64,000 bases of DNA, taken from a plasmid. The position numbers were made by a program. The stretch lies in assembly GCF_057098645.1 (NCBI RefSeq), contig NZ_JBXSPU010000002.1; one strand, given 5' to 3'. Shown here one piece after another: positions 45,001 to 60,000 of this stretch (within the stretch, counting starts at the first letter, position 1; every line of letters starts with the position of its first letter).

Positions 45001-48000
45001 GCTTATTATCTGGCAATAGCCTTTAAAAAATGGGGCGTCTCCTGGGAGGCCGTTGGTGCATACAATGCCGGATTCAGGAAGACCGAACGCCAGAACCAGA
45101 GACGTCTTGCCTACGCATCAGAGGTTTACCGGATTTATACCGGGATAAAAAGCAGTAAAGGTATCCGGATTCCGGTCACGAAGAAATCACTTCCGGAAAT
45201 TAACAGCGTGCAGAACAATTAATCTTACAGACATTGTCAGATACCGGTTATGCCGCAAAAGCGGCATGGAAGGCCACACACAAAAATATCATATGAGTGA
45301 CAATGCTGACTGGCCGAAGCCCCGCGAAGCGGGAACCCATCTTATATATACCCGGTAACTGCGCAGCCTCCTGCCAGACCATTTTTCGCGGGCACAATAT
45401 TTACAGACAACCGGAAAGCCGGTTGATGGAATTGAGGTATATCAGACGACACAGCGATGCCGAAGAATGATAATATAAGTAAAGCCCCGAAAAATTTTCG
45501 GGGCTTTACTTATATTATCATGACTTCCACTTTCTGAACTGTTCGGCAATCACCCATAACGCCTTGTTGATTCTTATATCACCATCAATACCTGTAATGG
45601 CTCTTGTCCTGGTATTTTTCCCGGAGGCACTTCGCCCCGATAATCCACCTTTTATCATATTCTCCTGAACCCGCTGCCAGGTTGTCCAGAGATCGTTCTG
45701 TTTATCTTCCCGACGACGGGGAGTAATTATTTGTTCAGGCGCACTGGCGTTTTATTTTCATCTTCATACCTGACCATCAGTGCAGCTCTGCCAAATAAAT
45801 GTTGCTCGTCACTGTTAAGATGAATTTCTTTCATCGCCTCCATATTATCAGTGACCTTATCAAAGACACCGGGCACTTCATACGCTCCCTCGATAACCTG
45901 CCCGACAATATTACCTTTATGTGGAACACGGATTTCGCCAAAATTATTTCCGCACACCAGGCCATTTGTGCAGACAAAACGAAAAATTCCGGGGATCATC
46001 TGATAACTGGATGAACTATCATGTGAATTAAGCAGGATAATTTCAGGAACTTCCTGCCCGTTAATATGCCCTTCCCTGCGAAGACGTAACATATGTTTAC
46101 TGTATTCGCGGCGTCCCAAATCACGAACCCGACTCTGACAGGCAAAGAATGGCTTAGACTGGCCCCCTGAATCTCCAGACAACCAGTATCACTTAAATAA
46201 GTGATAGTCTTAATACTAGTTTTTAGACTAGTCATTGGAGAACAGATGATTGATGTCTTAGGGCCGGAGAAACGCAGACGGCGTACCACACAGGAAAAGA
46301 TCGCAATTGTTCAGCAGAGCTTTGAACCGGGGATGACGGTCTCCCTCGTTGCCCGGCAACATGGTGTAGCAGCCAGCCAGTTATTTCTCTGGCGTAAGCA
46401 ATACCAGGAAGGAAGTCTTACTGCTGTGGCCGCCGGAGAACAGGTTGTTCCTGCCTCTGAACTTGCTGCCGCCATGAAGCAGATTAAAGAACTCCAGCGC
46501 CTGCTCGGCAAGAAAACGATGGAAAATGAACTCCTCAAAGAAGCCGTTGAATATGGACGGGCAAAAAAGTGGATAGCGCACGCGCCCTTATTGCCCGGGG
46601 ATGGGGAGTAAGCTTAGTCAGCCGTTGTCTCCGGGTGTCGCGTGCGCAGTTGCACGTCATTCTCAGACGAACCGATGACTGGATGGATGGCCGCCGCAGT
46701 CGTCACACTGATGATACGGATGTGCTTCTCCGTATACACCATGTTATCGGAGAGCTGCCCACGTATGGTTATCGTCGGGTATGGGCGCTGCTTCGCAGAC
46801 AGGCAGAACTTGATGGTATGCCTGCGATCAATGCCAAACGTGTTTACCGGATCATGCGCCAGAATGCGCTGTTGCTTGAGCGAAAACCTGCTGTACCGCC
46901 ATCGAAACGGGCACATACAGGCAGAGTGGCCGTGAAAGAAAGCAATCAGCGATGGTGCTCTGACGGGTTCGAGTTCTGCTGTGATAACGGAGAGAGACTG
47001 CGTGTCACGTTCGCGCTGGACTGCTGTGATCGTGAGGCACTGCACTGGGCGGTGACTACCGGCGGCTTCAACAGTGAAACAGTACAGGACGTCATGCTGG
47101 GAGCGGTGGAACGCCGCTTCGGCAACGATCTTCCGTCGTCTCCAGTGGAGTGGCTGACGGATAATGGTTCATGCTACCGGGCTAATGAAACACGCCAGTT
47201 CGCCCGGATGTTGGGACTTGAACCGAAGAACACGGCGGTGCGGAGTCCGGAGAGTAACGGAATAGCAGAGAGCTTCGTGAAAACGATAAAGCGTGACTAC
47301 ATCAGTATCATGCCCAAACCAGACGGGTTAACGGCAGCAAAGAACCTTGCAGAGGCGTTCGAGCATTATAACGAATGGCATCCGCATAGTGCGCTGGGTT
47401 ATCGCTCGCCACGGGAATATCTGCGGCAGCGGGCTTGTAATGGGTTAAGTGATAACAGATGTCTGGAAATATAGGGGCAAATCCATGGCTGGAAACCTTC
47501 ATCACGTAACTTATTGATGATATTGATTGTTGGAATATACGTATAACGTTCACTCCGGGACTCATGTTTATCACCGGAAAATACCGAAGGCACGAACTGC
47601 ATTAATTCATCATCCGTTAAAGGACGTTCACGGCGGATGGAATTATACCGACCAAAACGGGAAGCTAATCGCATAACAGCTACTCCTTTATGAAAGAATA
47701 AATTTAATAAAAAATTTTTCCGCTTAATATCATCCCTCCCGATCTCCATTAACAAGATTGCAACAATCAGGAGGGATATTCTTCACATCCGGTCAGCAGA
47801 TCGCCCGGATATCGAGGCCGGCACGCTTAATCTGACGCAGGAACTGTTTGAAGTGATCGGCTTCCGCATCCAGGCTGCTCTGGTATGCAAGATTTGCCTG
47901 AACAGCACGATTCTGCATGATGTCGATTTGTGCGATTGCGTCTTTCTGCTGATCGCCTGTTGGCTGATAAGCGGTGTTAAAAGAAAATGCGCTCATGTTT

Positions 48001-57000: not shown

Positions 57001-60000
57001 GGGCGGCCACGCAGGTTGAGCCGCTGCCTGCAAACGGGTCCAGCACAATTGCGTTCGGATGTGTGAAGCTCTCAATCAGTGGTTGCAGGCTGGTAACGGG
57101 CTTTTCCGTCGGGTGATGGCGGTTGCCTGAATATTTCCAGCCCAGCACGTCGGGCAATGGCTTCTGAGGCAGCGCCGGACGCCCTTTTGCCAGGATGTAA
57201 GCGCATTCGTGGCGATAGCCCACATATGCGGCCTTCGATGTGTAGGTTTTGGTAAATACCAGGTGGCCAACCACGCTGAATCCCGCATTTTTCCAGGCGG
57301 CCATAAAGCGATCGACGCGGTTCCAGCCATAGAAGCTCACCATCAGCGCATCTTTTTTCAGCACTCGGTACATTTCATTACAGGCCGGTTGCAGCCATTC
57401 ATCGGTTTTATCGCCGGCGATGGTACGCCCCTGACGGTCACGGAAACCGACGAGATATGGCGGGTCGGTGAGGATGAAATCGACAGCATTGCCCGGAAAC
57501 GTGGCCATAACACGCACGCAGTCACCCTGGATAAAACGGGACATAACAGCACTCCTTCTCTTACAGAGGGCACCGGGAGGGCGCCCCTGTGGCGCCCGTT
57601 CCCCGCTGCCTGTGGGCTGTTCACCGCGTCCGGTAACGGGTCAGGCCGACCGTGGAATACCGCAGCCGTCGTCTTTTTGACGGCGAGGATATGCCGCGAA
57701 AGCGGCTTGAAGGGCGTTCATCAGAAAAGGGCGACGGGCTGGCGTACACTGTCACCAACGCCAGCCGGGAGCGGTAAAAGCGCCCGTCCCGTGCCCGGCC
57801 GGACGCGGGACACTGACCACAGGCAGCGTTCCTGCCGCGCCGCGTCAGCCGGCGCAGTAAAAAGAGGAGCCCGGCGACATCCTTTACCGGAAAAGAAACG
57901 GGCGGTTGCCCGCCCGTCTCCGTCATACTTCATCCTCCATAATGCGCCACATTGTCGACTATCCACGCCGGTCCGGTGACTTCCGGCAGCTCATCGTCAT
58001 CTGTCGGGGAAGACCATTCAAGTTCCCCCCCACAGCACATCAACGAGCTCTCCACGCTCATACAACTGCCAGCCACAGAAATCACAGCCCTGTTCGGCAT
58101 ACCAGTGCTCCAGTGTGCAACTGAAACGGCGGCTTAATTCTGCAATAACGTCGCTTTCTGGCTGACACCACGGCGTGTCAAAATCCACCTGAATGAAGTT
58201 GTCTCTCTGACTGCTGATATTCACCTCATACCCCACAGGCCACTTCACGCCATACTGTTCGGTATACCAGTGATATGCAGAAGGAACACCGTTCAGAACA
58301 CCACCGTTAAAGCCGTTTACTTCAACATCCAGGCGGCTGGGCATCAAAATGGGGTACCGTGGTTTCAGCTGAAGTCGGTGAAATTTTCGGAGCCGGTCAT
58401 CGTCTTCTCCAGTAATTACCCGCTATACGCATCGATGTCGAACAGGGTCATGGTTCATCTGGAGGCGCTGGCACCGCGCGTTGAGCAGTACTCGATTGAC
58501 GAGATGTTTCTCGACGTGCGAGGTATTGACAGCTGCATCGATTTCGAGGATTTCGACCAGCAGCTGCGTGAACACGTCAGGAACGGGACTGGCCTGACTA
58601 TCGGTGTCGGAATGGGGCCAACCAAAACGTTGGCAAAGTCAACACAATGGGCTTCCAAAGAGTGGCCACAGTTTGGTGGCGTGCTGGCATTAACGCCGGA
58701 CAATATCCGCCGTGCGGAAAAACTGCTGTCACTGCAGCTGGCGCACGAACCCTGTATTTATCAGGAAGAACTTCAATGTGGTTCTGGAGAGAAAGGTCCG
58801 GGAACTCAATGGAGAAAGCTGTATTTCACTGGAGGAAGAACCGCCCCCCCAAACAGCAGATAGTCTGCAGCCGGTCCTTTAGAGAGCGCGTCACGACATA
58901 TGAGGCCATGCGCTAGGCCATCTGTCGGTACGCTGAGCGTGCAGCTGAAAAGCTGCGGGGCGAGTGTCAGTTCTGCAGACATATCGCCATTTTTTTGAAG
59001 ACGTCACCGTTCGCAGTAAACGAACCGTATTACGGGAATGTGGCCAGTGAAAAACTGCTCATCCCCACGCAGGATACACGGGATATCATTGCCGCTGCCG
59101 TTAGAATTCTGGACAGGATATGGGTGGATGGCCATCGATATGCAAAAGCGGGTTGCATACTCAACGATTTCACTCCTACCGGGGTTTCGCATTTGAACCT
59201 TTTCGATGATACTCAGCCCCGGAGCAACAGTAACCAGCCGTTGAAAGTCGTGGACAGCATTAACCATTCCGGTCTGGGGAAAGTGTGGTTTGCAGGCCGA
59301 GGCATTGCGCCAGAATGGCAGATAAAGCGTGAGATGTCGTCACCGGCATACACTACCCGCTGGAACGAACTACCGGTCGCCAGACTTTGAAAAAAAGAAA
59401 TTCATGGTGATTTCACTATGAAAGAATTAAAAAAAATACTTTATATTCAGTAAAATAAGCATGAAAAAAGCGTGGTGAAAATTGCAAAAAAAGGATGCCA
59501 TTTGGCATCCTGATATTAACCCGGCATATCCTATTCAGGCAGTTTTCTTAGAATGTTTTTTATAGCCTCATCGATTTCTAACTGCACCTCATTAGATATG
59601 CGGGAGAACTCATAAACAACAAGACGCTTTCTGGGGTCAGTCTTCTTTCTGGCAAATTGGTTACGATCAGAAAACTCTTTCAACTTCTCAGTTTCCACTG
59701 TTTTTACAGGCCGGTCTGTAAGCAATTTTCCTTCAGACCTGAAGACCGCCAGGATTTTGCTTTTCTCAATTGTTGGATAGTCAGGTAAAGCCATCAGTTT
59801 TTGGCGAACTCTATCCATAAACTCTTCCACTGACATTTTTTTGTTGGTTGCCTTTTCAGACAGTTTCAACAAAAATTGATAGTCCGACAGCGAAATATCA
59901 TTGATTATCGGAAATACAGAGATCATTTCATCCGGTACTGATGCCGCCTGAAATGCGCGTGTTACTTTTGCCGGAGAGATGCTTTCAGCCTGAGCGATCT

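Follow-up and report, generated by a model that had tools for sequence, protein, structure and literature searches.

We analyzed a 64,000-nucleotide stretch of plasmid DNA (contig NZ_JBXSPU010000002.1, NCBI RefSeq assembly GCF_057098645.1), hereafter the window, whose first nucleotide is position 1. It belongs to an F-like E. coli plasmid, a large virulence plasmid of the enterohaemorrhagic E. coli (EHEC) type, and carries etp type II secretion genes and stcE outside the region that concerns us here. This region is the leading region, an island of genes that spans 44.6 to ~58.3 kb and immediately adjoins the nick site (nic) of the origin of transfer (oriT), on the side that is transferred first. 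All its genes except gene X lie on the minus strand, and the core genes ssb, psiB, psiA and hok/sok (flm) are present. We consider it very probable that the island is a canonical F-like (MOBF/IncFIB) leading region, with four co-directional transcription units that are templated by the transferred strand (T-strand), driven by hairpins in single-stranded DNA (ssDNA) and used as early operons. The nic region and the four hairpins lie as follows.

44608-44629, plus strand: oriT nic region, F-type TraI site TTTGCGTGGGGTGT/GGTGCTTT, exact 22-nucleotide match, single occurrence
47997-48362, plus strand: Frpo1 / ssp1a, class 1, repeat core 48012-48300; 95.4% identical to F Frpo1
53136-53686, plus strand: Frpo2 / ssp1b, class 1, core 53434-53686, direct repeats D1-D4; 90-94% identical to the F Frpo copies
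54991-55228, plus strand: ssp2, class 2, with 32-nucleotide inverted-repeat arms at 54991-55022 and 55197-55228; 98% identical to F
57604-57828, plus strand: ssp3, class 3, with 30-nucleotide arms at 57604-57633 and 57799-57828; 99% identical to F

The nick falls between 44621 and 44622. During transfer of F, TraI remains on the 5' end and the DNA moves 5' to 3', leading region first. The identical 22-mer of F is part of the strand that serves ssb, psiB and the other leading genes as template. Since the F nic sequence is found here on the plus strand and in the F orientation, the plus strand is the T-strand and the template of all minus-strand genes, and it enters 5' to 3' towards higher coordinates. 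Gene X is the only leading gene that is coded on the T-strand itself and is therefore not expressible from ssDNA; its F counterpart ygfA is expressed late, only after conversion to double-stranded DNA (PMC9849209). Ordered by the hairpin that precedes them, the genes of the island are the following.

56861-57544, minus strand: orphan DPPY adenine methyltransferase, first gene of the ssp3 operon (NF010253 at 3.8e-150; 99% amino-acid identity to F)
56639-56860, minus strand: YubE, 73 amino acids, start abutting the methylase stop (phrog_4830 at 6e-34)
56193-56627, minus strand: DUF1380a (YubF/YcgB type), 144 amino acids (Pfam PF07128 at 9.1e-51, model 1-137/137; 94% amino-acid identity to F)
55371-56147, minus strand: YchA / YubG / NgrC, 258 amino acids, last gene of the ssp3 operon (97% amino-acid identity to F)
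55345-55363, minus strand: terminator-like GC hairpin and T-run directly after the YchA stop (consensus scan only)
54553-54954, minus strand: ardB / klcA (yfgB), anti-restriction (Pfam PF03230 at 4.2e-14, model 2-92/92; 85% amino-acid identity to F YfgB)
54084-54506, minus strand: DUF1380b (YcjA type), 140 amino acids (96% amino-acid identity to F)
53896-54087, minus strand: 63-residue basic protein (orf63), last gene of the ssp2 operon (94% amino-acid identity to F)
52591-53118, minus strand: plasmid ssb (89% amino-acid identity to F SSB)
52301-52534, minus strand: yfjA / yubL, DUF905, 77 amino acids (Pfam PF06006 at 1.7e-31; 96% identical to F)
50276-52240, minus strand: herB / yfjB / yubM, ParB-like cytidine triphosphate (CTP)-binding clamp, 654 amino acids (91.6% identical to F YfjB over the full length, 654 of 652 residues, across domains D1-D4)
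49773-50207, minus strand: psiB, SOS inhibitor (96.5% amino-acid identity to F PsiB)
49057-49776, minus strand: psiA, annotated as 'Plasmid SOS inhibition protein A' (97.9% nucleotide identity to F; ratio of nonsynonymous to synonymous substitution rates, dN/dS, 0.07 against F)
48619-48951, minus strand: hok/mok/sok (flm) post-segregational killing (hok 48619-48777, mok 48623-48835; Rfam sok RF01794 at 87.9 bits; Hok toxin annotated in relatives)
47793-47996, minus strand: chimeric open reading frame (ORF) of 67 amino acids, the N-terminal 45 from a 100-residue leading ORF (WP_001272235 type) and the C-terminal 22-24 from YgeA
45521-47674, minus strand: ygeB (DUF932) pseudogene (tblastn with F YgeB)
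44713-45222, plus strand: gene X / orf169 / ygfA, lytic transglycosylase (ORF; SLT-domain protein in the annotation of relatives)

The original prediction had described 47793-57544 as a leading-region island of known anti-defence genes and unrecognised ORFs. Every ORF that it listed is indeed on the minus strand where it had placed it, and its strand argument from the nic site is correct, as the single exact F nic makes the T-strand the template of these genes. The range that it gave does fall in the leading-region island; the gene for DUF905 (yfjA), hok/sok and the ssp3 hairpin, which lies outside the end it had set, were omitted. It had rightly recognized ssb, psiB, psiA, ArdB/KlcA and the orphan DPPY methylase, but its 'ParB-like nuclease' at 50276-52240 is an orthologue of HerB/YfjB. 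This protein scores above the TIGR00180 cut-off, hits phrog_7783 at 9e-253 and matches partition-type models (ParB/RepB/Spo0J), and a nuclease activity is without support. In F, YfjB is HerB, the host expression reprogrammer, a CTP-binding ParB-like clamp that sits on the recipient chromosome and reprograms transcription (2026 preprint, PMC13370423). Across the syntenic island, amino-acid identity to F is 75-99%, and the oriT nic, traM, the four hairpins and twelve leading genes are intact, with no stop codons.

Hairpins were found by searching for inverted and direct repeats and were folded as ssDNA in comparison with shuffled sequence (z). The fold signal is z = -6.4 for ssp2 and z = -7.0 for ssp3. 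We then aligned the window hairpins with diverged copies from metagenomic loci, reached through homologues of YchA. In the class-2 hairpin, 91% of pairs are kept and 18 of the 59 pairs are compensatory, with at most 4 in slid controls and none of 500 shuffles reaching the observed value; in class 3, compensatory pairs number 18 out of 86 across the diverged loci. When compared to F, where they lie upstream of ardB and of the methylase, ssp2 and ssp3 are better conserved than several flanking genes. The class-1 assignment is instead due to homology with F Frpo (90-95% identity) and not to fold signal.

A scan for consensus sigma-70 hexamers in the hairpin arms returned none at 9/12 or better. 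The distal arm of class-2 hairpins has a conserved motif, CTTGC-N15-16-GGCTAnnnT-N4-5-GCACGGC, which probably holds the -35 and -10 elements. Class-2 hairpins are also found in the diverged metagenomic plasmids L004 (4095-4276 and 5245-5484) and L006 (4170-4354), upstream of YchA-like genes and of ArdB. The class-1 elements are direct copies of ~290 nucleotides (48012-48300 and 53434-53686) that are 95-96% identical to each other. Moreover, the 43-nucleotide leader directly upstream of ssb (53136-53178) is 95% identical to 48012-48054, the leader upstream of the start of the YgeA chimera, and ~255 nucleotides (53179-53433) are present in the Frpo2 copy only. Some 'hypothetical protein' ORFs of F and other records overlie the class-3 hairpin or the Frpo repeats (57621-57926, minus; 47974-48381 and 53183-53917, plus). 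They look like artefacts of structured, repeated non-coding DNA, and the 101-residue ORF 57621-57926 within ssp3 is probably spurious.

On the coding strand, no sigma-70 consensus promoter was found upstream of the methylase, ardB or ssb. The absence of such promoters, the terminator-like hairpin after YchA and the tight gene junctions (TAAATG between the methylase and YubE, ATGA between DUF1380b and orf63) fit an organization in four operons. The promoters themselves have been studied elsewhere. Frpo1/ssp1a and Frpo2/ssp1b of F are ssDNA promoters with zygotic induction by experiment (Couturier 2023, PMC9849209), and ssDNA promoters of class 2 (klcA/ardA) and class 3 (M.EcoGIX) are described together with mapped transcription starts for both classes in pESBL (Wen 2025, PMC12672017). 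RNA sequencing found the klcA-homologue and M.EcoGIX-homologue operons of F enriched in transconjugants (PMC12672017). F ssp2 is also a roadblock to complementary-strand synthesis that is resolved by UvrD, and its loss lowers F transfer into restriction-proficient strains (Fraikin 2026, bioRxiv 10.64898/2026.01.09.698686).

We propose that, as the plus strand enters with its 5' end first from 44621/44622, the four intergenic hairpins would fold in the single strand and rebuild promoter duplexes, from which the host RNA polymerase would transcribe towards oriT. The ssp3 hairpin (57604-57828) would serve the methylase, YubE, DUF1380a and YchA; ssp2 (54991-55228) would serve ArdB, DUF1380b and the 63-residue protein; Frpo2 (~53136-53686) would serve SSB, DUF905, HerB, PsiB and PsiA; and Frpo1 (~47997-48362) would serve the YgeA chimera and the ygeB pseudogene. 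Synthesis of the complementary strand would finally erase the hairpins and switch the operons off. Early expression from the transferred strand, as originally predicted, finds backing in four hairpins that share 90-99% identity with F hairpins whose ability to drive zygotic induction was demonstrated by experiment, but in the EHEC-type plasmid of the window this programme would depend on mobilisation by a helper F-like plasmid.

Interleaved with the recognized genes are the six ORFs that had been proposed as unrecognised candidates for anti-defence or establishment functions. Five of them (53896-56860) are real genes under purifying selection. Their frames are intact and, in comparison with F and a second plasmid, their dN/dS is 0.09-0.18 (0.09 for DUF1380b, 0.14 for orf63, 0.16 for DUF1380a, 0.18 for YubE and YchA), where these values describe each family as a whole and cannot date a loss of function in the lineage of the window. 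A Shine-Dalgarno sequence precedes each ORF. The sixth, 47793-47996, is a deletion chimera. Three of the five are moreover recognisable, namely 56193-56627 as DUF1380 (9e-51), 54084-54506 as its divergent paralogue and, through its homologues, 56639-56860 as YubE (PF27407). The remote homology searches and structure predictions that had been suggested as a check assigned no function to the candidates. Of the families in NCBIfam, PHROGs, PADLOC and Pfam, against which we searched the six ORFs and their neighbours, the candidates match only DUFs or families of unknown function, and orf63 matches none at all. Both PDB sequence searches (YchA, both DUF1380) and profile searches (YchA and DUF1380 alignments) gave chance matches only (E >= 0.007). 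No sequence or fold similarity to a known anti-defence protein and no enzyme-like conserved motif was found in these proteins, and the literature returned no functional study of DUF1380, YchA, YcjA, YubE or other Yub names, or the 63-residue protein.

YchA has full-length homologues down to 25% identity, and its AlphaFold2 model is confident (predicted local distance difference test, pLDDT, 89.5; predicted template modelling score, pTM, 0.82). In this model the N-terminal domain is alpha/beta, a long helix and a beta-sheet domain come next, and the C terminus is again a long helix; the fold has no structural relative outside its own family. The conserved residues (GWP, R-x-P-x-x-P-x-R-x-WFDR and EAR) do not look catalytic. 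In phages, YchA has no representative in INPHARED, despite the existence of a PHROG family.

The two DUF1380 proteins are paralogues. DUF1380b is related to DUF1380a by BLASTP (28-31% identity, E ~1e-8), by phrog_9024 (2.7e-5) and by the shared motifs MY..., SLxDxE and RxVTVPA, and matches the Pfam DUF1380 model only at 0.05; judged by sequence, it is a divergent DUF1380 paralogue. Both proteins are strongly acidic (isoelectric point, pI, ~4.5; 4.55 for DUF1380a and 4.5 for DUF1380b), with net charges of -11 and -16. The most likely start of DUF1380a is the ATG at 56627 and not 56642, which gives the 144-residue form of the databases. Given an alignment of 25 sequences that covered both paralogues, AlphaFold2 returned an all-helical model of low quality (pLDDT 54), too poor for a fold search. 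At the other extreme of charge is orf63 (pI 9.8), whose start overlaps the DUF1380b stop by 4 nucleotides and whose homologues, at 50-62% identity, follow ArdB or ArdA in the diverged loci. A relationship between orf63 and YubE was considered and dropped, as the two do not align.

The genes around the candidates vary in how closely they follow F. The methylase has the DPPY motif (beta-class) and no restriction or nuclease gene adjoins it, its neighbours being the ssp3 hairpin and YubE. The F gene is called an M.EcoGIX homologue (PMC12672017), and M.EcoGIX performs SAY-specific N6-adenine methylation (m6A) of single strands (PMC7736820). By its likeness to the F gene, rather than by direct alignment, the window methylase is a predicted homologue of the single-strand-specific M.EcoGIX. 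YubE, in turn, is only 80% identical to F at the nucleotide and 75% at the amino-acid level (dS 0.76), and PF27407 matches are found on homologues that share 44-55% identity with it, as well as on frameshift fusions that carry the window YubE sequence. The genes on either side of this divergent allele share 94-99% identity with F, which points to recombination (mosaicism) at one small gene. ArdB, a predicted inhibitor of type I restriction by virtue of its family, lacks eight residues, GGYMMPDG, which F YfgB carries between two PDG repeats, and the deletion is common to the pO103 lineage.

Diverged loci allowed us to follow the candidates beyond close relatives of F. In two of them (L014 and L015), where YchA is 39-40% identical to that of the window, the order methylase, YubE, DUF1380, YchA, hairpin gap, ArdB, orf63 is kept. 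In L014, identity to the window is 87% for the methylase, 67% for ArdB, 62% for orf63, 55% for DUF1380, 44% for YubE and 39% for YchA, which indicates that the candidate proteins evolve much faster than the methylase. At 25-29% identity (L004 and L006), YchA homologues lie directly upstream of ArdB/ArdA, without methylase, YubE or DUF1380 and with a class-2 hairpin of their own, and in L006 an orf63 homologue follows ArdA. As an association only, these loci strengthen the link of the candidates to anti-restriction modules and to early expression driven by ssDNA.

At the end closest to oriT, the Frpo1 operon of the window is decayed. In the 67-residue chimera, similarity to F YgeA is confined to the last 24 residues. 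In pO86A1 two separate ORFs of 100 and 95 amino acids occupy its position, and its junction corresponds to the loss of 542 bp between direct repeats of 7 bp (TTCCGCA, 47862-47868), which fused them in frame. We thus rejected 47793-47996 as a novel small gene, as two known ORFs are joined in it. The exact chimeric protein is present on 311 contigs and hence marks a circulating deletion lineage. The next gene, ygeB, survives in pieces: residues 1-63 at 47674-47486, residues 62-207 at 46155-45718 and, in another frame, residues 201-273 at 45739-45521, with a frameshift near codon 204. It is split by an insertion sequence:

46157-47485: IS2, complete, inside ygeB (orfA/orfB ORFs; 5-bp target duplication TGGCT)

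The splitting of ygeB by IS2 and the frameshift, together with the ygeA deletion, means that the oriT-proximal Frpo1 operon has decayed. In F, deletion of ygeA alone reduces transfer to ~4% and ygeB alone is not deletable (PMC9849209), and given these results a natural lineage in which both genes are inactivated is curious.

The transfer functions of the plasmid have suffered as well. When 24 Tra proteins of F were searched by tblastn against the 64-kb window, the only matches were traM (43919-44299) and, at 43595-43729, residues 1-45 of TraJ, along with which FinP and the 5' untranslated region of traJ are kept; the etp/stcE virulence genes lie to the left of this remnant. In pE105-1, a close relative with ehxCABD, katP and stcE, traI and traG are frameshifted and traY to most of traH is missing, leaving a partial traH. 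The plasmid is without the genes of a type IV secretion system (T4SS) and not self-transmissible; with the T4SS genes lost, expression from transferred ssDNA can occur here only after mobilisation by a helper plasmid. At the opposite, distal end the leading region is eroded between 57933 and 59390, where umuC/impB-like fragments lie on the plus strand (58270-58863 and 58995-59390) beside the following remnant:

57933-58347, minus strand: DUF1281 (yubB type) remnant (tblastn; residues 163-299 only, frameshifted)

Segment 53800-57600 is 99.9-100% identical to pO103 (NC_013354.1) and ~30 relatives, and ~94% identical to more than 4,900 other IncF plasmids of Escherichia, Klebsiella, Salmonella and Shigella. 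Overall, the leading region is common to at least 5,000 PLSDB plasmids.

The molecular role of the five candidate proteins is a matter on which we only infer. They may be non-enzymatic binding proteins, small, helical and very acidic in the case of the DUF1380 pair, that would be made in the first minutes after entry, and their most likely role would be to protect the incoming DNA, beside the methylase and ArdB, from host defences that target DNA. The most specific version of this idea concerns YchA, which is found on at least 5,000 sequenced enterobacterial plasmids and, in diverged plasmids where it has its own class-2 promoter, always immediately upstream of ArdB or ArdA, and which diverges far faster than the methylase beside it. 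Its model and context make it a tentative candidate for an autonomous early effector, with a fold absent from the PDB, that would inhibit a host DNA-targeting defence, and we hold this version with considerable doubt. If it is true, the DUF1380 pair, YubE and the 63-residue protein might be inhibitors too, and the methylase-YubE-DUF1380-YchA and ArdB-DUF1380-orf63 operons would be multi-component counter-defence modules instead of known genes with passengers.

Several other readings compete with a role in defence inhibition. It is highly improbable that the unrecognised ORFs are no genes and stand open by chance in GC-rich DNA. The G+C content of the region is 55-63%, overlapping spurious ORFs are numerous, and some annotated hypotheticals do overlap hairpins (57621-57926 and the plus-strand ORFs over Frpo), but the dN/dS values with intact frames in F and other plasmids, the homologues of the same length down to 25% identity, the confident YchA model, the Shine-Dalgarno sequence at each start and the gene order kept in diverged loci effectively refute this reading for the five conserved ORFs, and it stands only for 47793-47996, an accidental fusion frame. 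Some of the small proteins could also be partners or regulators of the adjacent known gene and not effectors in their own right. YubE would then serve the ssDNA methylase as subunit, chaperone or regulator, and orf63 would be an accessory of the anti-restriction protein. The start of YubE abuts or overlaps the methylase stop not only in the window but also where YubE is 44-55% identical (L014 3713/3713, L015 6719/6719), orf63 homologues follow either ArdB or ArdA, and orf63 overlaps its upstream gene in the window. We nevertheless find this unlikely, as M.EcoGIX is active when cloned alone (PMC7736820) and YchA homologues exist with their own promoter and without methylase, YubE and DUF1380. 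A possibility that we take more seriously is that the early proteins are factors of establishment or host manipulation, acting on replication, SOS, recombination, transcription or metabolism, and not inhibitors of defence. The 654-residue neighbour is HerB (92% identity to F YfjB), a reprogrammer of host transcription (PMC13370423), PsiB and SSB suppress SOS (PMC9849209), the diverged islands with YchA and orf63 homologues also hold a DNA polymerase III theta homologue and DUF905, and no anti-defence homology was found for the candidates. On the other hand, the closest conserved neighbours of YchA, orf63 and DUF1380 are ArdB/ArdA and the methylase, not ssb or psiB, and the divergence of YchA and YubE (39-44%, with 87% for the methylase at the same locus) better fits an arms race. 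Host manipulation is possible, although we would not expect it.

A different question is whether the island is still in use. It may be a vestige in the plasmid of the window, inherited from a conjugative F-like ancestor, and we give this reading some weight while thinking it less probable than its opposite. Only traM and a traJ stub stand beside oriT, followed by etp/stcE virulence genes, the tra genes of pE105-1 are lost or frameshifted as described, and ygeB, the ygeA region, DUF1281 and ArdB all bear lesions. The oriT nic, traM, four hairpins and twelve leading genes are instead intact, a co-resident F-like plasmid could in principle mobilise the plasmid, and the dN/dS values cannot date a loss of function in this lineage. 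Coming back to the canonical F-like leading region with hairpin-driven early operons and a protective role for the candidates, a number of observations weigh against it. The ssDNA fold of class 1 is weak, with z = -2.9 for Frpo1 and further values of -2.5, -2.6 and -0.3 with the boundaries used, and as a single hairpin with narrow boundaries (z = -2.6 and -0.3) class-1 Frpo was not convincing. In F, deletion of Frpo2 or ssb is without effect on transfer between isogenic strains (PMC9849209). With only traM and 45 traJ codons present in the window, the activity of the island in its own plasmid is conditional. Parts of it have decayed (ygeB, the ygeA region and DUF1281), and ArdB has its deletion of eight amino acids. 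Finally, the neighbours HerB, PsiB and SSB act on host physiology, so that association is weak evidence for anti-defence; their known functions mean that 'leading' does not imply 'anti-defence'.

The idea that such ORFs are candidates for anti-defence functions is itself already published. Leading regions have been described as anti-defence islands (Samuel et al. 2024, PMC11541004), and the 'Top 100 leading region families' of that study include, all as uncharacterised, family 6 ('Plasmid protein'), family 7 (DUF1380, YcgB/YubF), family 10 (YchA/NgrC/YubG), family 11 ('Cytoplasmic', YfcA) and family 14 (YcjA/YubJ). The candidates of the window are families 6 (orf63), 7, 10, 11 (YubE) and 14, a match made by database names and family sizes and not by sequence. 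Guilt by association, on which the original prediction relied, is a reasonable guide to these ORFs, but the families had been flagged before, the function is not demonstrated and no anti-defence similarity of sequence or fold was found. The island is ordinary, a known F-type leading region with nothing categorically new in the window. What we observe directly is its anatomy, orientation, homology, coding constraint and hairpin covariation, and the analysis adds a modest amount: it corrects the map and places four ssDNA promoters on it, supports the class-2 and class-3 hairpins by covariation, provides evidence for a class-2 promoter that distant YchA homologues have of their own, gives a confident YchA model and recognizes one candidate as a deletion chimera. 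The island is a copy of the F leading region with slight decay, and the window is not a privileged place to study the five widespread early proteins. These proteins are nevertheless encoded on thousands of clinical plasmids and induced within minutes of entry in F, and since the action of the first-expressed genes decides the success of a transfer event, assigning functions to them would be useful.

Among known systems, the early genes of phages such as T7 with Ocr, and the acidic DNA-mimic ArdA, offer the same early and transient expression before host defences act. The DUF1380 pair resembles Ocr and ArdA in being small, predicted helical and acidic, a likeness of composition only, with no sequence or structural similarity found. 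The anti-defence islands (PMC11541004) show the same cluster of anti-restriction, orphan methylase, SOS-inhibitor, SSB and toxin-antitoxin genes, likewise templated by the T-strand, with Frpo-type promoters and as the first ORFs after oriT; there is no categorical difference from the window, whose copy lies on a plasmid that is no longer self-transmissible. In the leading regions of IncI1 plasmids (pESBL, ColIb-P9 and R64; PMC12672017), the same three promoter classes occur, class 2 before klcA/ardB and class 3 before an M.EcoGIX-type methylase. IncI1 has six operons including ardA, whereas the window has four and no ardA. The pESBL operons are induced up to ~500-fold on entry (PMC12672017), and we liken them to those of the window through the publication, not by direct sequence comparison. 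The closest counterpart is the leading region of the F plasmid (NC_002483, ~53.8-66.1 kb; Manwaring 1999, PMC9849209, bioRxiv 10.64898/2026.01.09.698686). Unlike F, the window has ygeB disrupted by IS2 and a frameshift, a 542-bp deletion that joins an upstream ORF to the tail of ygeA, an ArdB shorter by 8 residues, a divergent YubE allele (75% amino-acid identity, dS 0.76), a truncated DUF1281 and no tra operon beside oriT. In both plasmids, the genes run in the same order (methylase, YubE, DUF1380, YchA, ArdB, DUF1380, 63-residue protein, ssb, DUF905, HerB, psiB, psiA, hok/sok, ygeA, ygeB) and in the same orientation to an identical nic, and F likewise has all four ssDNA promoters, of which the window carries copies that are 90-99% identical.

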